This document shows, piece by piece, positions 13,421-56,214 of a stretch of DNA of 64,000 nt (the first letter of the stretch is position 1; every line of letters starts with the position of its first letter). The DNA lies in assembly GCA_020847715.1 (NCBI GenBank), contig JADLBM010000021.1:800-64799 (forward strand), written 5' to 3'. A program made the position numbers and the translations under genes. The notes beneath the pieces are model-generated. The model was given only the letters and a program-made list of their open reading frames with translations. It made no database searches and was not told the DNA's origin. Origin of the DNA: Candidatus Yanofskybacteria bacterium. Its GTDB lineage: Bacteria; Patescibacteriota; Minisyncoccia; 2-02-FULL-40-12; GWA2-44-9.

Positions 13421-14050
13421 CTAGGCGGTGATTTCAAGAATGGCGCCCTTCGCACCCGGAACCGCACCCTTCACGGCGAGCACACCGGCTTCGGCATCGA
13501 CAACGATGACCTTCAAGCCGCGCATACTGATGCGCTCCTGACCGTCGCGTCCCGGACCGCGCGTACCCTTCAGTGTGTGCTGAGGGAAGCGCTGACCGAT
13601 GGAACCGACGTGGCGAAGCACATGGTGGTGGCCATGGGATGCAGGAGCACCGTGGAATCCGTGGCGCTTCACCGCACCTGCAAATCCCTTTCCCTTCGTA
13701 AGCCCCGCGACCTTTACCACATCGCCAGGAGCAAAGATCGAGACATCGACGGAATCGCCGACGGCCAAATCCTTACCACCGACCGCAGTTGCCTTGAATT
13801 CGCGCGTCCAACGGAAGCTCCCCAACTCCTTGAAATGCCCGCGGAGACCCTTCCCGAGGTTCTTTGCCTTCTTCGTGCCCGCACCCAGCTGAACGGCCGC
13901 ATAGCCATCCTTTTCAACGGATTTGACCTGCGTGACCACATTCGGAGCGGCCTGAAGCAGGGTAACCCCAATGAGCTCGCCTTTTTCGCCATACACCTGG
14001 GTCATCCCCAGTTTAGTGGCAAGCATGAATTTTGCGGGTGTCTTTGCCAT
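13421..14050 (-). CDS. rplC: 50S ribosomal protein L3
   Basis: MLATKLGMTQVYGEKGELIGVTLL...KGKGFAGAVKRHGFHG; exact start (14050 or 14026) uncertain. Confidence 0.9.
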   Translation of the reverse strand: MAKTPAKFMLATKLGMTQVYGEKGELIGVTLLQAAPNVVTQVKSVEKDGYAAVQLGAGTKKAKNLGKGLRGHFKELGSFRWTREFKATAVGGKDLAVGDSVDVSIFAPGDVVKVAGLTKGKGFAGAVKRHGFHGAPASHGHHHVLRHVGSIGQRFPQHTLKGTRGPGRDGQERISMRGLKVIVVDAEAGVLAVKGAVPGAKGAILEITA

Positions 14051-14282
14051 AAACAACACAAATTCCGGCCTAGCCGGAACATCGGCGAAGCCACGTGCGA
14101 GGGTATCCATTGAAGGACCTGCCGCACGGTCGGGGTGTCTTAGGCCGGTTCTAACTCCTGCCGGAAACCCCTGCTGGGAAGCCGGTCGCCCGGCTCAAGT
14201 CAGCCCAACGACTATACACGAACCCCCAAAAGAATGCAAGCCCCCAACAAAAAGCCTGCGCAATGCGCAGGCTGGAGACGGT

Positions 14283-14663
14283 TCACTCCCGATAGCAGGT
14301 CGTGACCGTGTTGCAGATGCCCCGTCCGCCGACGCCGCTCGCTCCGCACCAGTAGTTCCACGCTTCCGACGAGGACCACGTCGCGGGCGTGATGCCCCCA
14401 CCCGACGTCCACCCCGAGTAGCCGACCGTGGCGCCCTGCATCCCGCCCCGCGGGTCCTCGACCGTGCAATAGCCGGTGAAGCCCTGCTCCTGCAGCAATT
14501 GCGGCCCCGCCACCGTACCGCAATGGAAGAGTCCACGCCTGCTGCAGAACTTGAGGCCCGTGTCCTGCTCGGGCGCGAGCGGGTTCAAGCAGCTCCCCGC
14601 ACCCATCAGGATGGGACTCAACACCACGACCATCAACGCGACGTATCGCTTCGCCCGCTTCAT
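14283..14663 (-). CDS. hypothetical secreted/lipoprotein-like Cys/Gly-rich small protein (8 Cys)
   Basis: N-terminal signal MKRAKRYVALMVVVLSPILMGAGSC; first gene of the island between rplC and rpsJ. Confidence 0.5.
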   Translation of the reverse strand: MKRAKRYVALMVVVLSPILMGAGSCLNPLAPEQDTGLKFCSRRGLFHCGTVAGPQLLQEQGFTGYCTVEDPRGGMQGATVGYSGWTSGGGITPATWSSSEAWNYWCGASGVGGRGICNTVTTCYRE

Positions 14664-14720
14664 TACCCCTCCTCAGCGAATATGAGAACCGACTGTACCA
14701 CTGTTCTTACTTATTGTCAA

Positions 14721-14790
14721 AACAAAAAAGGACCGGCGCGTGTGCGTCGGTCCGGAGAGCGGACTAGCGGAAACGGAGACCCCAGCGATG
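14721..14790 (-). repeat. direct repeat copy 1 (about 68 bp) carrying the gene 3' end plus a terminator hairpin GGACCG...CGGTCC plus T-run
   Basis: aaaaaaggaccggcgcgtgtgcgtcggtccggagagcggactagcggaaacggagaccccagcgatg is near-identical to 15451..15519. Confidence 0.8.
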
Positions 14791-14979
14791 CTCTCGGGGA
14801 CACCTGAAGAACTCCCGCAACACGGCCGGGAGAGCGATGGGACCGGCGAGCACGTTGAGGCACAGAGCGAGCCACTTCACGTAGCCGCCATCCTGGCAAA
14901 AGCCCACCGTGATGATGTGATTGACCCACGCCCACAGCAGGTAACCGGTCAACGGCCACAGCAGCCACCACAGATTCAT
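14764..14979 (-). CDS. small hydrophobic membrane protein, paralog of 15493..15738 (shared C-terminal HRWGLRF)
   Basis: 71 aa, 2 predicted TM; 3' end lies inside the 68-bp direct repeat. Confidence 0.5.
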   Translation of the reverse strand: MNLWWLLWPLTGYLLWAWVNHIITVGFCQDGGYVKWLALCLNVLAGPIALPAVLREFFRCPREHRWGLRFR

Positions 14980-15075
14980 GCTTCACCTCGGTTTCATAAT
15001 ATCACGGTTTCTTGATTCGTCAAATACAAAACAAAACCCCTCTCGGCCGAAGGGCATAGAGGGGTCGGGAACGGG

Positions 15076-15393
15076 TCAGTGGGTGAACGCGTAGTGCAGG
15101 AACATGACGAAGTAGACGACGAGCATGCCGCTCGCGAATCCGCCGGCTAGCGGATGCGGCGCGACCCAGTTTTCGCAGTAGGGATGCCCGGGAGACCCTC
15201 GGTCAGTCAACTCCTGCCAGCCCGCACCGAAGTTCGTGTGACTGGCGGTGAAGAACGCGATGAAGAACCCGAGGAACAGAACCCAAAATGGCAACGGGGT
15301 CTGGCGACACCACGCCTCATGGGCGGCCCGGAACCCCAGCACGAAGATGAGGCCCAAGCTGAACGCGAACCACCACAGTTTCTCAAAGGACAT
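15076..15393 (-). CDS. hypothetical membrane protein (about 105 aa, 3 TM)
   Basis: MSFEKLWWFAFSLGLIFVLGF...; hydrophobic profile. Confidence 0.45.
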   Translation of the reverse strand: MSFEKLWWFAFSLGLIFVLGFRAAHEAWCRQTPLPFWVLFLGFFIAFFTASHTNFGAGWQELTDRGSPGHPYCENWVAPHPLAGGFASGMLVVYFVMFLHYAFTH

Positions 15394-15450
15394 GGCACAA
15401 CCTCCTGATTCGATTATACTCCATTTTATTAGAAAAGTCAATGCCCATCG

Positions 15451-15519
15451 CGAAAAAAGGACCGGCGCGTGTGCGTCGGTCCGGAGAGCGGACTACCAGA
15501 AACGGAGACCCCAGCGATG
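15451..15519 (-). repeat. direct repeat copy 2 (terminator plus gene 3' end)
   Basis: matches 14721..14790 with 3 substitutions. Confidence 0.8.
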
Positions 15520-15738
15520 AGCTGCAGGAAAGTTGCGGGCTTCGGCCGCCGTGTTAAAGATGGCAATCGGCCCGGCAAGTATCCCGACCAGCAGCGCGAA
15601 AACCTTGACGTGCCGCTCCACCGCCCCACCCGCTCTGAGCGGATACACTCTGTTGAGCATGTAATTGAACCACGCCCAACCCAGAATGCCCAACACGGCC
15701 CACACGAGAACCAACCCGGACACCAGCCATGGATTCAT
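15493..15738 (-). CDS. small hydrophobic membrane protein, paralog of 14764..14979
   Basis: 81 aa ending AAHRWGLRFW. Confidence 0.5.
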   Translation of the reverse strand: MNPWLVSGLVLVWAVLGILGWAWFNYMLNRVYPLRAGGAVERHVKVFALLVGILAGPIAIFNTAAEARNFPAAHRWGLRFW

Positions 15739-15834
15739 CGAACCCTCCTAAAATAAATCATACACCTCTTATCTAGTTGTGTCAATGTCCAACAAAAACC
15801 CCTCGCGGATGCGAGGGGTCGGGAGCTTCATGTT

Positions 15835-16074
15835 CTACAGCAGAGGCACTCCGCAGTCGACGCAGCGCCCGCACTCGCTTACCGGACCATCGTGGTCGCA
15901 AGCCCACTTGCCCACCTCGTCAGCGGCGATGTACTTCGTGTCCTTACTTCCTGCAACATCCACCTTGAGGACAAGGCACCTCGTTCCCGCCCTGACAACG
16001 TACGTCGCGGGCGCTAAGCGTTTCGCTCCGCCCGTACTGGAAAGCCACCGCGTATCAACCCTCTGCTGTGCCAC
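15835..16074 (-). CDS. hypothetical small protein with C-terminal Cys cluster (CDHDGPVSECGRCVDCG)
   Basis: 79 aa; SD GGAGGT 4 nt upstream of ATG. Confidence 0.45.
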   Translation of the reverse strand: MAQQRVDTRWLSSTGGAKRLAPATYVVRAGTRCLVLKVDVAGSKDTKYIAADEVGKWACDHDGPVSECGRCVDCGVPLL

Positions 16075-16107
16075 TGTTCTACCTCCGCCAGCTGGATGAT
16101 GCGCGCA

Positions 16108-16332
16108 TCACATTAGCGAGTTCACCAAAAGAGCACCGATGAAGAGGACCAGCACCGCGAGAAGTACCTCCGCGAACATCGTGGCGCTAATCACACGGTC
16201 GCGCTCCTCCCGCCTCGCCTGCCATTCTGCGTGCATACCGTCCCAACACGCACCACAGTAGTTGCTTCGGTACCGCGCGAAGGCGTTGCACCCCTTGCGG
16301 ATGCACTTCTTCAACTGCTCACCTCTCACCAT
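16108..16332 (-). CDS. hypothetical zinc-finger plus C-terminal TM anchor protein (74 aa)
   Basis: CIRKGC-x10-CGAC then hydrophobic tail; SD GGAGGT 5 nt before ATG; probably co-transcribed with 16374..16661. Confidence 0.45.
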   Translation of the reverse strand: MVRGEQLKKCIRKGCNAFARYRSNYCGACWDGMHAEWQARREERDRVISATMFAEVLLAVLVLFIGALLVNSLM

Positions 16333-16373
16333 GCGAACCTCCGGAAAGACTCTGCCGCGCTTTCCAAGAACTT

Positions 16374-16661
16374 TCAGTGCCTCTGATTGCGGTCTCGATG
16401 CTGTGCGTAGATGGCGGGGATGAGCTCATTGAGGACTCGCTCGCGAGGCACCTCGGCAAGACTCCGAAACCCGTGCTCCGCAATCCAGAGCTGAACCTCG
16501 GGTTCGCGATTGAGCCGAGTATAGAGAGCGCCCGCGTCCTCCCGCACACCCGCGGCGAACGTCGTGAGCACGCGATGGACGCCGGTACTGATGCGATCCA
16601 CGAACTCTTCGACAACAGCAAGATCTGGGGCGACATCGTCTGGGTCTTCGCCATCCGCCAT
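16374..16661 (-). CDS. hypothetical small acidic protein (96 aa) behind conserved leader copy 1
   Basis: MADGEDPDDV...; listed ORF over-extended; conserved promoter/SD leader immediately upstream. Confidence 0.5.
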   Translation of the reverse strand: MADGEDPDDVAPDLAVVEEFVDRISTGVHRVLTTFAAGVREDAGALYTRLNREPEVQLWIAEHGFRSLAEVPRERVLNELIPAIYAQHRDRNQRH

Positions 16662-16710
16662 GTTCCACCTCCGCCGCGAGGTATACCACATGCGGCATAC
16701 CACCGCAACG
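16650..16710 (-). promoter_or_regulatory. conserved promoter/leader copy 1 (TTGCGG-17-TATACC then GGAGGTGGAACATGGCGGATG)
   Basis: about 60-nt near-identity with copy 3 (17636..17695) including the first 3 codons; core shared with copy 2. Confidence 0.65.
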
Positions 16711-16792
16711 CAGCAACGCATTGGAGCGTCCTCGCGCCCATGCGCTCGGAAACGAATGGCCGGCCATCCCCGCAGAAAACGAGCGGCCATTC

Positions 16793-16822
16793 GAAAAAAA
16801 GGCCGTCGGAGGGACGGCCGGC
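16793..16822 (-). terminator. terminator after 16823..17177 gene
   Basis: GGCCGGCCGTCCCTCCGACGGCC hairpin then TTTTTTT on minus strand. Confidence 0.6.
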
Positions 16823-17177
16823 CTATCGAACTTCCCGCACTCGCCCATCCTGGATGACCAGCTTCTCCTTCTTGAGCAGAACGGAATTCAGCATGCAGGA
16901 TTCATCCCACCCAGGACTGTCTCCCGGTCCCTGTGCGCTGTAGCGATCGCGACTCATCTTGCCGCATGCCATGCACACCCACACCTGCCCCTCCGGAGCG
17001 ATACGAGGGCCATCGCTCACCGACCCGCTTACCGGATCGGCCGATGAAAACACCGGCGCCATCCGCGCATCGGCAGCAAGCAGGCGCGCTCGCAGAACTT
17101 CCGGATGTCTCCCCGCCAGATGTGGGAATGAATTGATGAGCTCCCCGAACTCCTCCTTGCAGATGCTACACTTCATG
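16823..17177 (-). CDS. hypothetical Cys-rich zinc-ribbon-like protein (118 aa)
   Basis: MKCSICKEEFG...CMACGKMS...; preceded by leader copy 2. Confidence 0.5.
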
Positions 17178-17200
17178 CTCCACCTCCGCCGCAAGGTATA
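17165..17200 (-). promoter_or_regulatory. conserved promoter/leader copy 2 (GTGGTATACCTTGCGGCGGAGGTGGAGCATG)
   Basis: shares a 31-nt core with copies 1 and 3. Confidence 0.6.
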
Positions 17201-17217
17201 CCACGGTCTGCGTAAAA

Positions 17218-17250
17218 ACAAAACCCCTCGTGGCAACGAGGGGGTCATAT
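17218..17250 (-). terminator. terminator after 17256..17647 gene
   Basis: CCCCTCGTTGCCACGAGGGG then TTTTGTTTTT on minus strand. Confidence 0.65.
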
Positions 17251-17255
17251 AGTGT

Positions 17256-17647
17256 TCAGGTGCGGCGGTGCTCGGCGTTGATCTTGCCACAGAGCGTACA
17301 GACATCCATCGGCCGACCACACCCCACTCGATGCACATGATATTCGTCACAAAATGGCGGCTCGTTAAACTTGCCCGGACACGGCGGCGAGTAGTGCCGC
17401 GCCAGATCCGGAACCAATGCATTGGCGCTCTTGGCCCACTCATCGTCAGGATGCTGGTATGCCGCCTGCGCCAAGAGCCCAAGCGCTTCCTCCGCTGCCG
17501 TATATACGGCGTCCCAATCACAAACAAGCGCACCAACATCGATGTGGAGCAGCCCAACAAGCTTCATGAGCGTCTCGCGAGCTTGTCTGCCGAAGAACTT
17601 CTCGTCCCCGAGTTTCGCCTCAAGTCCGCCTTTGGCATCCGCCATGT
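17256..17647 (-). CDS. hypothetical protein with C-terminal Cys/His-rich zinc-binding region (130 aa)
   Basis: MADAKGGLEAK...CPGKFNEPPFCDEYHVHRVGCGRPMDVCTLCGK; preceded by leader copy 3. Confidence 0.5.
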
Positions 17648-17695
17648 TCCACCTCCGCCGCAAGGTATACCACATGCGGCATGCCACCGCAACGC
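17636..17695 (-). promoter_or_regulatory. conserved promoter/leader copy 3
   Basis: TTGCGGTGGCATGCCGCATGTGGTATACCTTGCGGCGGAGGTGGAACATGGCGGATG. Confidence 0.65.
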
Positions 17696-18017
17696 GGACG
17701 AGCGGCCATTCGTTCGAAAGAAAAAGGCGGAAGTGTTTCCACTTCCGCCTAGACCCAGCTTCGGGCCCTGCTCTACCGCCAGTGCTTGGGGTTCTGGCAG
17801 TGCCCCTCACCCTTGAACCAGCAGTTGACGAAGTCGTCCTTCACGCACTTCAGGAACGTGATGAAACGCTCGCGCACGGCTTATATCCTCCTGACAGGAT
17901 TCCACATCCCGTCTGGAACCATGGTACACTATTTTATTGAATAAGTCAATACCCCAAAAGTCAATCCCCGCCCACGGGATGATTACTACCCATTATCCAC
18001 ATTGAGGGGAGAAAAAC

Positions 18018-18356
18018 ATGCTCGTACAATCTATGCGTACCAAGTGGGCGTTGAAAACGAAAGAGAGCCGCACGCGAATGCGACTCGGGAATTCTTTCGT
18101 GAAGCGAGGATTACTGCTTCTGGGAAGACACCAGAAGAATAGCACGCCTGACACCTGCGCAAAACAAAACTGTGCACATATGGCAATAAAAACCATAAGG
18201 CAAATACGGCCTGTCCGCCCAATCAAGCCGATTGAGCGGATGCAAAATATCCAGACACTCCCCCCGATTGGGGCGAGGAAATGGATACGGGCGCATTGGC
18301 GTTACGACTACATCTCCCGAAAATGGGAGTGGGTCTTAGGCCACTGGTCACGTTAA
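18018..18356 (+). CDS. hypothetical basic protein (112 aa), only plus-strand gene in the island, within the low-GC patch
   Basis: SD GAGGGGAG before ATG at 18018; followed by a perfect 13-bp hairpin at 18368..18398. Confidence 0.4.
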   Translation: MLVQSMRTKWALKTKESRTRMRLGNSFVKRGLLLLGRHQKNSTPDTCAKQNCAHMAIKTIRQIRPVRPIKPIERMQNIQTLPPIGARKWIRAHWRYDYISRKWEWVLGHWSR

Positions 18357-18367
18357 GCCCAGACAAC

Positions 18368-18398
18368 ATCACAAACAGCTCACCGAAGTGAGCTGTTT
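18368..18398 (+). terminator. perfect 13-bp stem hairpin (ACAAACAGCTCAC / GTGAGCTGTTTGT), likely terminator
   Basis: inverted repeat directly after stop of 18018..18356; weak T-run. Confidence 0.45.
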
Positions 18399-18463
18399 GT
18401 GTGCCACTATACTAGGATATCGCTTCAATGGTGGCGGGGATGTGGCAAGAGAGGGGGTGAAAT

Positions 18464-19027
18464 CTACTGACCATCGGTAGGGGCAGCTTTTGCTTTTTCC
18501 TGCTCATCAATGTCCTTCACGTTCCAGCCCTTGGTGGTGATGATTTTGTCTCGGAGGTAGATACCAAGCACTTCAGTAACATCACTGAACTCAAGACCTT
18601 CTTTGAAAAGGTAGTCCTTGATTGCCGTCATGCGGTCGTCTGCCTCAAGCGTAGCAATGACCTTCTTTGATGCTTCCTGTACATCGTAGGATGTCTTTAC
18701 ATTCTCGCCATCAACCTTGCTCAGAAGGTCGGTGATATTATCGTCAACAAACTTCCGACCACCGCTTTCGGTAAGCACTTTCTCTCCACGTTCCGTGAGG
18801 GAGATAGGGCTTTTCTTTTTCGTGAGAGGGCCTTGATTGTCTAGCATCGTCTCACACTTTATTGTTTTGTCGCGAATTTCTTTTACTTCCTTTTGCACCC
18901 CTTCAATATCCTTTTCGGCTCGGTCAACCTTAGACTTATATTGACCGATGGTGAATACGGCTGACAACCCACCGACGATTGCGGCAAGCAGGAGGTTTAC
19001 TATGAAGAAAATCATCTCTTTATCCAT
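18464..19027 (-). CDS. hypothetical N-terminally TM-anchored coiled-coil protein (about 187 aa) in low-GC patch
   Basis: MDKEMIFFIVNLLLAAIVGGLSAVF TM then charged coiled coil; local GC about 45% versus about 60% window average. Confidence 0.5.
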   Translation of the reverse strand: MDKEMIFFIVNLLLAAIVGGLSAVFTIGQYKSKVDRAEKDIEGVQKEVKEIRDKTIKCETMLDNQGPLTKKKSPISLTERGEKVLTESGGRKFVDDNITDLLSKVDGENVKTSYDVQEASKKVIATLEADDRMTAIKDYLFKEGLEFSDVTEVLGIYLRDKIITTKGWNVKDIDEQEKAKAAPTDGQ

Positions 19028-19247
19028 GAACGTATGGTACAAGATATTTGGGGTATTTGAAAGTATCATTCCGATGTTCATGTCTTAATTGCTGCCAGGG
19101 AGTACTCACCATATTTTTTTAGTCTGAGTGAGCGCTCGATCCAGTCACCCAGCGGCCCCGCGCTTGGCCGCAGATGAGGCGATGAAATCCGGCTTCGGCC
19201 CCGACGAGGTCCGAGCGATTTCCTTTCGTGCAGGTCGAGAGCTAGCG

Positions 19248-19649
19248 CTAGAAAGTATTTTCAAACTCTCCATCCTTGCAGAGCGCATTTTCCCGCCACC
19301 AGAAAGATAATCCTCCACCGTTCAAAGGGTAAAGTTCGTCACATTTCGCATCGCTTTTTGGTTTCGGGTCGCTATACCTGATGTAGCACGTGTCGTTTCC
19401 CTCGCCATACCGCCAACCCTTCACATTGCTCCACTTGGCACCCTCAGTCTTGTAAATCGCCAAGCAATCATTTCTTCTATCAGCAGCATATTTCTTATTA
19501 GCCTCTTCGCTCTTTCTATTTTGGTACCCCTGATACGAAGCAGAGGCGACGACTACCACTAGAAGTATTGATAGCAGTATGCCGACCCTAAACCAATTGT
19601 GACCCAGCCAGCGTAATGCGCGAGAAAGTATGCGTTTCATCATACCCAT
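19248..19649 (-). CDS. hypothetical TM-anchored secreted-domain protein with 4 Cys (133 aa)
   Basis: N-terminal TM VGILLSILLVVVVASA, then Cys-containing domain; lower GC. Confidence 0.45.
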   Translation of the reverse strand: MGMMKRILSRALRWLGHNWFRVGILLSILLVVVVASASYQGYQNRKSEEANKKYAADRRNDCLAIYKTEGAKWSNVKGWRYGEGNDTCYIRYSDPKPKSDAKCDELYPLNGGGLSFWWRENALCKDGEFENTF

Positions 19650-19805
19650 ATGTTACACCTACTGCCTTTCGCTACAATAGATTCGCGAGTCCGGATGCTC
19701 CGCGATGCGCGAGCGAGAAGCGCAGTGAGCCGTACTACCGATACGGCGAGCGCGCATCGCAGCGGCAACGAAGCGGGGCGCCGGAATCGCGAATCCCCCA
19801 GCAAA

Positions 19806-19835
19806 AGCAAAAGACCCCAAACGGGGTCTTTTGCT
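19806..19835. terminator. bidirectional rho-independent terminator (GACCCC-AAAC-GGGGTC flanked by T/A runs)
   Basis: terminates tuf-rpsJ transcript on minus strand; U-run present on both sides. Confidence 0.7.
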
Positions 19836-19892
19836 TTGCCATGAGTACTCGGTAACCCTTCGACTTCGCTCAGGGTAATTCGCCCTAGCGAA

Positions 19893-20219
19893 TTACATTT
19901 TGATTTCGATGTCGACGCCCGCAGGAAGTGCCAGATTGGTCAACGACTCGATAATCTTCGGAGTCGGACCGTGGATGTCGATGAGGCGCTTGTGGATGCG
20001 CATCTCGAACTGCTCACGGGAGTGCTTGTCGATGAACGACGCGCGGTTGACCGTGAACTTCGAGATTTCGGTCGGAAGGGGCACCGGACCTACCGGCTTG
20101 CCACCGTACCGCTCGATGGTATCCGCGATTTGCCGCGCCGACTTGTCGATGATTTTGTTGTCGTATGCGCGGAGCTTGATGCGGATGCGCTGCTCCTGTT
20201 TTTCGGTTTTCTTGGCCAT
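19893..20219 (-). CDS. rpsJ: 30S ribosomal protein S10
   Basis: [40 protein letters not shown]; its stop overlaps a 20-bp palindrome TAATTCGCCCTAGCGAATTA. Confidence 0.94.
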
Positions 20220-35262: not shown

Positions 35263-35374
35263 GGACCTCCATTGTAGGCCCTTCCGACAACCAGGCAAAT
35301 GTGGATAATTTTGTGCCAATTTTCCCGTACAAAAGACGCTATTTGACATTCGCCATAAATGTGTGGTATACAAC

Positions 35375-44826: not shown

Positions 44827-44890
44827 ATGCCGCTAGTATACCACACCGCCCATGCGGGCGGTGTGGGAGTGAACGCGGTCAATGCCGCCC

Positions 44891-56199: not shown

Positions 56200-56214
56200 C
56201 GTGGTATACTAGTG
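56200..56214 (+). promoter_or_regulatory. TGGTATACT -10-like motif preceding surface protein gene (also at 55579..55590 before pilA)
   Basis: same motif family as TGTGGTATAC seen upstream of many genes in this window. Confidence 0.4.

Follow-up and report, generated by a model that had tools for sequence, protein, structure and literature searches.

Cassettes of integrons usually have no promoter of their own, and their repeat is found at the 3' end; phage morons, reportedly described by Juhala and colleagues in 2000, are independent promoter-gene-terminator units in prophages. T4-type phages possess promoter-early stem-loop regulatory cassettes, or PeSLs (Arbiol et al. 2010, PMC2839356; Comeau et al. 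2014, PMC4122927). Promoter reuse by putative mobile promoters has been described in prokaryotes from a screen of positions -150 to -50, in which repeats extending into the ORF were excluded (Matus-Garcia, Nijveen and van Passel 2012, PMC3575422). The criterion for a putative mobile promoter is an identity of 80% or more, across 50 nt or more of this interval, upstream of non-paralogous genes.

The locus considered here is a small-gene island, 5.8 kb long, that separates rpsJ from rplC on a MAG contig of Candidatus Yanofskybacteria (CPR). To my knowledge, promoters and gene regulation are almost unstudied in CPR bacteria. Within the island, one leader recurs ahead of three small genes, hereafter A, B and C. 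The repeat is probably the native promoter/RBS module of gene C, copied locally within a hypervariable small-gene island, and the arrangement looks to be an ordinary case of a promoter reused locally, in an island that changes fast, and not a novel cassette system. Positions refer to the window, the whole 64-kb stretch of DNA that was analysed.

Three copies of one leader

The 31-nt core of the leader, GTGGTATACCTYGCGGCGGAGGTGGARCATG, has three exact matches (16659-16689, 17174-17204 and 17643-17673, each on the minus strand and free of mismatches); none occurred in any of 100 shuffles and 0 copies are expected by chance, which bears out the initial annotation in its claim of three leader copies before three genes. 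Identity between copies 1 and 3 is 94% across 66 nt (17630-17695 versus 16646-16711), a stretch that takes in ATGGCGGAT and, as had also been claimed, the first codons MAD; copy 2 has only the 31-nt core in common with them. The three-copy leader is the longest repeat family within the window, in which the full leader has only three copies per 64 kb (the counts cover about 69 kb of the source genome). Since Logan assemblies built independently from further sequencing runs (L001, L003 and L004) also show the three-leader arrangement, an assembly artefact is ruled out.

The leader fits best with a compact promoter of the extended -10 type and an SD, placed ahead of three unrelated small ORFs (Table 1). 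In copy 1, TTGCGG lies at 17692-17687 and is followed by a 17-nt spacer, TGG-TATACC at 17672-17664, GGAGGTG at 17656-17650 and the ATG at 17645. Among the gene starts given initially, that at 16661 was kept, while those placed at 17647 and 17177 on the minus strand are replaced by the ATGs at 17645 and 17176. The TTGCGG -35 with its 17-nt spacer, assigned at the same time to the shared core, is present in copies 1 and 3 but not in copy 2, where a terminator T-run lies about 10 nt upstream instead, the same as in the leader of the sister MAG described below. Because TTGCGG is absent from both copy 2 and the sister leader, it does not belong to what is conserved in the module. A 14-nt box, GAATGGCCGCTCGT (17698-17711 and 16779-16792), is likewise common to copies 1 and 3, directly after the upstream terminators, and the extra 65 nt or so that separate this box from the 66-nt leader in copy 3 contain an inverted repeat. 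A predicted intrinsic terminator precedes each of the three leaders, and the hairpin of the one that follows g0 is kept in the sister MAG.

Table 1. Leaders, predicted terminators and genes of the locus (window coordinates)
Feature	Position	Strand	Description
g0	17773..17877	-	34-aa Cys-rich ORF, GTG start; conserved left neighbour of the leader
g0 terminator (intrinsic, predicted)	17725..17750	-	11-bp stem plus T-run; directly upstream of leader copy 1
Leader copy 1	17636..17711	-	GAATGGCCGCTCGT box, TTGCGG, spacer, TGG-TATACC, GGAGGTG, ATG, shared codons ATGGCGGAT plus G
Gene A	17256..17645	-	129 aa, NCBI IT405_03225
Gene A terminator (intrinsic, predicted)	17224..17243	-	3' of gene A
Leader copy 2	17174..17204	-	31-nt core only: extended -10, 7-nt spacer, SD, ATG; without -35 segment
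Gene B	16823..17176	-	117 aa, IT405_03220
Gene B terminator (intrinsic, predicted)	16801..16819	-	3' of gene B
Leader copy 3	16652..16792	-	GAATGGCCGCTCGT box, ~65-nt insert, 66-nt leader (core 16659-16689), ATGGCGGAT plus G
Gene C	16374..16661	-	95 aa, IT405_03215; small conserved gene
Gene D	16332-16108	-	74 aa, after C without intervening terminator
Gene E	16074-15835	-	79 aa, after D; terminator (predicted) at 15820-15797

The island genes and the sister locus

The island is flanked by fusA-tuf-rpsJ on one side and rplC-rplD on the other, and its genes each have their own predicted promoter and terminator. Pfam, NCBIfam and PADLOC gave nothing significant on ten island proteins, no integrase family included, and PHROGs gave no match at E <0.001; no recognisable DNA-binding domain was found in the ten scanned, no recombinase lies inside or adjoining the island, and no prophage is evident there.

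The proteins encoded downstream of the leaders had been called unrelated, and comparison agrees: BLASTP of A against C returned no alignment at E up to 100, and A and B have only a CxxCGK motif in common and are otherwise without homology. Sequence identity between A and C ends abruptly after ATGGCGGATG, and the leader repeat extends into the ORF; this abrupt end and the lack of any alignment rule out A and C as diverged duplicate genes. Gene A, whose first three codons (MAD) are those of gene C, encodes at residues ~45-128 a rare small-protein family with eight invariant Cys/His. A word-indexed search found A alone, but exhaustive phmmer recovered 9 remote family members, so A is not a true orphan. 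This family of 9 members was not found in IMG/VR, and the AF2 model of A has a mean pLDDT of 75.6. Gene B has C2H2-like spacing at its N-terminus (C3, C6, H19, H24) and, at residues ~55-117, a conserved domain (CxACGK...WDESCML) that also forms stand-alone proteins of about 70 aa in phage contigs and is modelled by AF2 with pLDDT >90 across most of its length. The phage link of gene B comes from the 33 IMG/VR contigs that carry this C-terminal domain, in one of which a terminase large subunit gene is found about 2 kb away from it; a tblastn search of GenBank phage genomes with B gave no match. GC, at 0.59-0.62, is like that of the genome, and GC3 of A, B and C is 0.65-0.675 versus 0.75-0.80 for tuf, rpsJ and fusA. 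A and B represent rare families of small Cys/His-rich proteins, and both genes are probably foreign. Since no terminator intervenes before the one that follows E, D and E probably share the leader 3 transcript with C; the RBS of E, GGCGGAGGTAGAACAGTG, is similar to the leader's.

The history of the leader can be approached through the sister MAG GCA_020852375.1, which carries g0 followed by the same terminator, a single leader (GTGTGGTACAACCAAGTCCGGAGGTGGCGTATGGCGGAT) and an ortholog of gene C (77% identical; dS 0.74, dN/dS 0.19), with neither A nor B. The g0 ortholog is 76% identical and in the same position (L005 9808-9909); in the source MAG g0 has a predicted promoter, TTGACT-17-TACCAT, at 17949-17921. 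An exact-sequence look-up of g0 for strains without A and B found no record, and alignment scans found one distant homolog in JGI metagenomes, within a dense small-ORF array, and none in IMG/VR. In the sister leader the blocks GTGGTA.A.C, CGGAGGTGG and ATGGCGGAT are kept, with the two spacers almost fully diverged. Because this single orthologous leader precedes the gene C ortholog, after g0 and the terminator, the leader would appear to be gene C's own promoter and RBS, present threefold in this lineage; the ancestry comparison is with one sister genome, and the sequences seen include no recombination intermediate. A and B are present or absent between the two genomes exactly between leader copies; they may have been inserted in this lineage or lost from the sister one. 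More generally, the source and sister MAGs show whole-gene differences at each terminator-promoter junction, and at least two Yanofskybacteria have a hotspot of gene turnover at the rpsJ-rplC junction. Within the island, the F/H paralogs have a 67-nt 3' end and the terminator in common (97% identity).

In strain L003 the Y position is C in both copy 1 and copy 2, and the contig stops inside copy 3 in the C-form k-mer; the window reads T, T and C at the Y positions of copies 1, 2 and 3, and the remaining ~1 kb is identical. That the only difference between L003 and the window falls at one corresponding position in copies 1 and 2 suggests gene conversion between leader copies, although recurrent mutation could also have produced this single-position difference.

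Probable promoter function and alternative readings

The motif GTGGTATAC occurs 6 times in the 64-kb window, against 0.15 expected, and the earlier remark that the -10 core recurs elsewhere in the window is thus correct. The three further sites, at 35363(+), 44844(-) and 56201(+), are each directly upstream of a gene start, the three genes being unrelated. One has a canonical TTGACA -35 and GGAGGTG downstream; the other two lie 7-8 nt upstream of the ATG of long ORFs without SD, for which reason these ORFs are taken to be leaderless. At leaderless housekeeping-type genes the hexamer is TATACT or TATACA. Use of GTGGTATAC as the -10 of three unrelated genes, two of them leaderless, supports a promoter function of the leader. 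The motif GTGGTATAC(T/A/C) looks like a genuine extended -10 in this lineage, leaderless genes included, and may aid prediction of transcription start sites and gene starts. The leader hexamer, TATACC (TACAAC in the sister), ends in C. In E. coli sigma-70 promoters the last -10 position is almost always T, and by E. coli rules the leader promoter would be weak. Sigma-54, ECF and phage-RNAP-type promoters were also considered, and none fits the leader on a by-eye check of its sequence.

The exact leader has no match in GTDB species representatives, JGI metagenomes or IMG/VR. A relaxed pattern, GTGGTAYAMC-N7-GGAGGTGG, gave 37 matches in 185,579 genomes, near my rough chance estimate (tens), and a single match in the entire sister assembly. 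A dispersed or horizontally mobile element is rejected on these results, and the term 'portable' first applied to the leader is too strong, the sister showing it as gene C's resident promoter. Given its three full copies per 64 kb and the single relaxed match in the sister, the full leader does not appear to be a genome-wide consensus either.

The module comprises the extended -10 (TGG-TATACC) and, after a spacer of 7 nt, a strong SD (GGAGGTG) at a distance of 6 nt from the ATG. If it is indeed gene C's promoter/RBS, copied locally, its three copies would create three transcription units (A, B and C-D-E), independent of one another and driven in a similar way. By analogy with the leaderless window genes that use GTGGTATACT, transcription would start some 6-8 nt after the hexamer, hence at or beside the SD, giving a 5' UTR of only about 10-12 nt, and mutating TGGTATACC in the leader would alter expression. 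A and B lie between leader copies, each closed by its own predicted intrinsic terminator; gene A would be a 5' chimera, carrying the first 10 nt of the gene C ORF, while gene B would have been joined to the leader exactly at its ATG. The near-identity of the copies would reflect recency and/or gene conversion, and the leaders, being direct repeats, would lend themselves to homologous recombination, by which the genes between them are gained or lost. A bolder proposal, which I consider unlikely, is that the terminator-promoter-SD leader is a mobile regulatory cassette at work, the equivalent of phage PeSLs on the chromosome of a CPR bacterium, in which homologous recombination between leaders, possibly via excised circles, repeatedly captures and discards phage-derived small zinc-binding genes. 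Were it true, the rpsJ-rplC junction of the S10 ribosomal operon would be a dedicated hotspot in which captured genes are instantly expressed, and a reduced-genome symbiont would possess a recombinase-free gene-cassette system.

The core might alternatively be mainly an operator, whose 8-bp palindromes GGTATACC and GGCATGCC (GGYATRCC; their centres are 14 bp apart in copies 1 and 3) bind a dimeric regulator of A, B and C and whose identity is kept by selection. GGTATACC is indeed a perfect palindrome in all three copies, and in copies 1 and 3 a further one, GGCATGCC or GGTATGCC, is located 14 bp upstream of it. Copy 2 however lacks this second palindrome, the orthologous leader of the sister reads the non-palindromic GGTACAACC, the placement of GTGGTATAC 7-8 nt upstream of leaderless housekeeping-type genes fits a -10 element, and none of the ten scanned island proteins could be recognised as DNA-binding, all of which makes a mainly operator function improbable. 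An operator would be compatible with a promoter role. It is also conceivable that the leaders are site-specific recombination sites, integron-attC-like or Xer/dif-module-like, with incidental promoter features, since single-gene units flanked by direct repeats populate a hypervariable region and the gene content of close relatives varies exactly at leader junctions. The lack of a recombinase in or adjoining an island bounded by fusA-tuf-rpsJ and rplC-rplD, and of any Pfam, NCBIfam or PADLOC match, makes such sites very improbable; moreover, the blocks kept between species are the -10 and the SD, not an inverted-repeat core, the repeat extends into the ORF (ATGGCGGATG), and scans of GTDB representatives, JGI metagenomes, IMG/VR and the sister assembly found no copies outside the locus.

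Riboswitches are typically long conserved 5' leaders ahead of unrelated genes, an arrangement that the present one resembles, and the shared sequence could thus be a cis-regulatory RNA leader (riboswitch, thermometer or sRNA target) acting post-transcriptionally. This is scarcely credible. The extended copy 3 region does fold somewhat better than shuffles (z = -2.15), but copy 1 (z = -0.74), copy 2 (z = -0.72) and the sister leader (z = +0.44) do not; the UTR would have only the short length predicted above if transcription starts after the -10; the spacers that would pair are unconserved and without compensatory changes between species; and the only matches in the window that reach the Rfam gathering score are three tRNAs. 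Local copying of gene C's module is the preferred reading, which would make the locus a clean natural case of promoter/RBS reuse down to the first three codons, giving unrelated, probably foreign small genes a ready-made expression signal.

Comparison with known systems

Like integron arrays, the island is a variable locus of tandem, small, unrelated and mostly uncharacterised ORFs, and a likeness to cassette arrays had been noted initially. The comparison with integrons fails on the machinery: intI, attI, attC and a Pc promoter are all missing, the locus being bounded by tuf-rpsJ and rplC-rplD and its ten scanned proteins having no Pfam/NCBIfam match. Here, moreover, each unit comes with a promoter; the repeats are direct, overlap the ORF from its 5' side and contain the -10 and SD, while the 3' ends are ordinary intrinsic terminators rather than attC-like sites. 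The suggestion of phage-like moron units fared better. As in morons, the units are small genes with their own promoter and intrinsic terminator, both by sequence prediction (Table 1), and at least gene B comes from a phage-borne family. Morons also have a nucleotide composition distinct from their surroundings; here GC3 is somewhat atypical and GC is like the genome's. These terminator-bounded units are nevertheless not strict morons: they lie between ribosomal protein and elongation factor genes without a prophage backbone, and the promoter, which in a moron arrives with the gene, is here a copy of a resident chromosomal one.

With putative mobile promoters the leader shares a highly similar upstream sequence (94% over 66 nt) before non-homologous genes of one genome, with no known mobile element attached. 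It differs in that the repeat spans about -56 to +10, including the -10, the SD and three codons, and in that its copies are adjacent, not dispersed; the 14-nt box is all that the copies have in common within -150 to -50.

Promoter reuse at this locus works, as I read it, like the PeSL cassettes of T4-type phages. In both, the small ORFans of a hyperplastic region are separated by repeats made up of a terminator stem-loop, a promoter, an SD and a start codon, a correspondence of architecture only; relatives differ by whole genes at the junctions, and the leaders, like PeSLs, could serve gene-shuffling homologous recombination. By contrast, PeSLs belong to T4-type phage genomes and number about 50 per genome, whereas the leaders lie in a bacterial (CPR) chromosome, with 3 copies at one locus and 1 in the whole sister assembly. 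Recombination between PeSLs yields mini-circles, with gain or loss of genes; at the leader locus no such circle was seen. The PeSL promoter is a perfect sigma-70 consensus with the stem-loop interleaved with its boxes, while the leader has a non-consensus extended -10 and its stem-loop 10-100 nt upstream. Leader triplication does not overturn current views.

The repeated leader and its genes

The repeat is real. A 31-nt core, GTGGTATACCTYGCGGCGGAGGTGGARCATG, precedes each of the small genes A, B and C (IT405_03225, IT405_03220 and IT405_03215 on the Candidatus Yanofskybacteria MAG contig) as leader copies 1, 2 and 3, and no match to it was obtained in 100 dinucleotide-preserving shuffles, which bears out the initial annotation of a shared leader before three genes. 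The additional sharing claimed for copies 1 and 3 also holds, since they are 94% identical over a 66-nt stretch containing GCGTTGCGGTGGYATGCCGCATG and ATGGCGGAT plus G; the similarity of copy 2 to the others is confined to the core. Of the starts proposed, 16661 is right while the other two were off by 1-2 nt, the ATGs being at 17645, 17176 and 16661. The leader is the longest direct-repeat family within the 64-kb window. Because Logan assemblies made independently from other runs (L001, L003, L004) also contain the three-leader arrangement, it is not an assembly artefact.

Coordinates of the features in the window
Feature	Position	Strand	Remarks
31-nt core, copy 1	17643-17673	minus	pattern match in window
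31-nt core, copy 2	17174-17204	minus	pattern match in window
31-nt core, copy 3	16659-16689	minus	pattern match in window
Terminator preceding leader 1	17750-17725	minus	predicted intrinsic
Terminator preceding leader 2	17243-17224	minus	predicted intrinsic
Terminator preceding leader 3	16819-16801	minus	predicted intrinsic
Shared terminator of the C-D-E run	15820-15797	minus	predicted intrinsic
GTGGTATAC outside leaders	35363-35371	plus	canonical TTGACA -35, then GGAGGTG-N3-GTG
GTGGTATAC outside leaders	44836-44844	minus	as TGGTATACT, 8 nt before ATG (44826) of 234-aa ORF, without SD
GTGGTATAC outside leaders	56201-56209	plus	as TGGTATACT, 7 nt before ATG (56218) of long ORF, without SD
rpsJ	20219-19893	minus	
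rpsJ-rplC region	14050-20219	minus	gap holds 12 small genes with own promoters and terminators
rplC	from ~14050	minus	own predicted promoter TTGCAT-17-TATAGT
205-aa and 133-aa membrane-protein genes	18464-19649		GC 0.45-0.47, GC3 ~0.52
B residues 1-24	17105-17176		C2H2 zinc-finger spacing C-x2-C-x12-H-x4-H, F as expected
F	15738-15496		membrane-protein paralog of H
H	14979-14767		membrane-protein paralog of F
F/H shared 3' end	14724-14790, 15453-15519		97% identical, 67 nt
tRNA-Pro(GGG)	27899-27828	minus	
Copy of tRNA-Pro(GGG) 5' part	27999-27963		exact, 37 nt, 99 nt upstream
Copy of tRNA-Pro(GGG) 3' part	27800-27767		71%, just downstream

The products (129, 117 and 95 aa for A, B and C, equal to the NCBI proteins) are unrelated, as had been stated: A and C gave no BLASTP alignment, and the sole similarity between A and B is a CxxCGK motif. 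Along the minus strand fusA, tuf and rpsJ come first, and rplC and rplD follow after a stretch of small genes about 5.8 kb long; rpsJ and rplC are normally neighbours where the S10 operon begins. For nearly every small gene of this island a separate promoter and intrinsic terminator are predicted, and the island proteins gave no match in Pfam, PHROGs, PADLOC or NCBIfam.

Ancestry and function of the leader

Gene C has one homolog, 77% identical, in the sister MAG GCA_020852375.1, whose locus (L005) keeps the fusA-tuf-rpsJ ... rplC frame with a different gene set in the gap. In the sister region (L005 6354-11163) this gap measures 4.5 kb and contains DUF3800, a 207-aa protein, HNH, DUF2726, g0 (the 34-aa Cys-rich ORF that is the left neighbour of leader copy 1), C, a small zinc-ribbon ORF and F, of which the window shares only g0, C and F. 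There, a single leader, GTGTGGTACAACCAAGTCCGGAGGTGGCGTATGGCGGAT, comes directly after the g0 terminator, and the C ortholog comes next. Blocks GTGGTA.A.C, CGGAGGTGG and ATGGCGGAT are kept between the two species, whereas nearly all positions differ in the 7-nt -10-to-SD spacer and the 3-nt SD-to-ATG spacer; gene C itself shows a dS of 0.74 and a dN/dS of 0.19. Conserved blocks between diverged spacers are what selection on a -10 element and an SD would be expected to leave, and the comparison identifies the leader as the probable promoter and RBS of gene C itself, and MAD as the putative ancestral N-terminus of C. The window lineage retains both junctions, g0-to-leader at copy 1 and leader-to-C at copy 3, with A, its terminator, leader copy 2, B and the B terminator between them. 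The first 10 nt of A would thus be borrowed from C.

Copy 2 resembles the short sister-type leader (a T-run, about 10 nt, then GTGGTA). The upstream extension with the TTGCGG '-35', common to copies 1 and 3, is probably derived; to me, part of it resembles a tandem duplicate, 14 nt long, of the -10 unit, GTGGTATGCCGCAT adjoining GTGGTATACCTCGC with 10/14 positions identical. Strain L002 (Logan SRR35280560) carries a 17-nt deletion in the extension, between the g0 terminator and copy 1.

The -10 core recurs, as had been noted: GTGGTATAC has 6 occurrences in the window, with 0.15 expected. The genes following the two TGGTATACT sites look leaderless, which would place the likely transcription start about 6-8 nt past the hexamer; the product of the long ORF is probably secreted. 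These sites support the view that TGG-TATAC(N) is a real extended -10 in this organism. Leader transcripts would then begin at or beside GGAGGTGG, leaving some 10-12 nt of 5' UTR. The promoter reading is weakest at the last hexamer position, a C (TATACC here, TACAAC in the sister) that is unusual by E. coli rules. As an extended -10, GTGGTATAC may be of use for locating promoters and gene starts within this CPR lineage.

The full leader, by contrast, has only its three copies in the window: neither it nor its upstream half occurs again there, and the exact pattern had no match in 185,579 species-representative genomes, JGI metagenomes and IMG/VR. The relaxed pattern GTGGTAYAMC-N7-GGAGGTGG, which fits the leaders of both species, has 37 matches across all genomes, in unrelated phyla, roughly the chance level by my own estimate (tens). 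Its one match in the sister assembly is the C leader. An organism-wide consensus, named beforehand as what would weaken the cassette interpretation, is therefore found only for the 9-nt -10 core.

Other roles for the repeat were weighed against that of a promoter. GGTATACC and GGCATGCC are palindromic, as operators might be, but the sister leader is not palindromic there and unrelated promoters use the same 9-mer, so that an operator is unlikely. An RNA element is hardly credible given a negative Rfam search and fold z-scores of -0.74 (copy 1), -0.72 (copy 2) and +0.44 (sister leader), a value of -2.15 being reached by the extended copy 3 region only. That the leader is the site of a site-specific cassette system is very improbable: no recombinase was found at the locus, attC-like structures are absent, and the repeat extends into the ORF. 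The locus is not an integron array, nor are its genes morons in the strict sense. The more probable reading is that a resident promoter and RBS, three codons included, was triplicated locally, a sensible and fairly ordinary mechanism.

Apparent gene turnover between rpsJ and rplC

Over about 1 kb, L003 differs from the window only at one equivalent position of leader copies 1 and 2, where it has C, matching copy 3 (window copies 1, 2 and 3 have T, T and C). Gene conversion between copies appears the simplest reading; recurrent mutation is possible. The F and H proteins are only 40% identical, yet their genes share the last codons and terminator almost exactly. This common 3' end mirrors the leader repeated at the 5' end, and it suggests that gene conversion has acted on regulatory ends. 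Whole-gene differences between window and sister are found at each terminator-promoter junction, and the rpsJ-rplC junction resembles a hotspot of gene turnover. Genes could be gained when a fragment or circle carrying a leader integrates at the leader repeats, and lost by deletion between the repeats; since A and B lie between direct repeats of about 31-80 nt, gain and loss would be equally easy, one sister genome having been compared.

A word-indexed search pointed to A as an orphan, which exhaustive phmmer overturned with nine relatives (88-197 aa, aligned to residues ~45-128). Invariant in this family are C89, C99, H103, H105, C109, C116, C119 and H126, enough for two putative metal sites. 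None of the relatives is in IMG/VR. In B, residues ~55-117 form a conserved domain (CxACGK...WDESCML) that occurs in metagenomes as ~70-aa proteins, encoded in dense small-ORF arrays with dUTPase, RNase T and methyltransferase genes, and in 33 IMG/VR contigs, in one of which the gene lies ~2 kb from those for a terminase large subunit, a DNA methyltransferase and a primosomal protein. GenBank phage isolates gave no match to B. Its C2H2-like N-terminus, fused to this phage-type CxxC/WDESCML domain, received no Pfam call. The AF2 models are moderate overall (mean pLDDT 75.6 for A and 77 for B, the C-terminal domain of B mostly >90), and Foldseek found no PDB match for B. GC3 is 0.65-0.675 in A, B and C versus 0.75-0.80 in tuf, rpsJ and fusA. 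Taken together, this makes a foreign, probably phage-related origin likely for B and possible for A.

The 205-aa and 133-aa membrane-protein genes, whose housekeeping neighbours have a GC3 of 0.75-0.80 and whose PHROG matches are weak and holin- or spanin-like only, are probably a recent foreign insertion directly after rpsJ. In L002 (1-700) a trypsin-like serine-protease gene fragment replaces these low-GC genes directly upstream of g0. JGI metagenomes gave a single distant g0 homolog (L084 400-1000; 33 aa, DFVNCWF motif). It sits within a dense array of small Cys-rich ORFs, after an ORF that may encode a replication-type NTPase, which hints that g0 too might be of mobile-element descent. Elsewhere in the window, the partial copies of tRNA-Pro(GGG) may be the scar of an integration at the tRNA.

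Comparison with known systems

In this CPR bacterium the triplicated leader now stands before small genes that are unrelated and likely acquired, within a hypervariable island, and it would gain importance if it were an active recombinational capture module. It is close to the concept of the 'putative mobile promoter', or promoter reuse, although that concept is defined for positions -150 to -50 and the repeat here spans about -56 to +10 (PMC3575422). In the PeSL cassettes of T4-type phages, a terminator stem-loop, promoter, SD and start codon are repeated between ORFans in hyperplastic regions and mediate modular shuffling (PMC2839356; PMC4122927). Being outside a phage, in only three local copies and at that position, the leader falls outside both formal definitions; in its way of working, the closest analogue would be the PeSL cassette.
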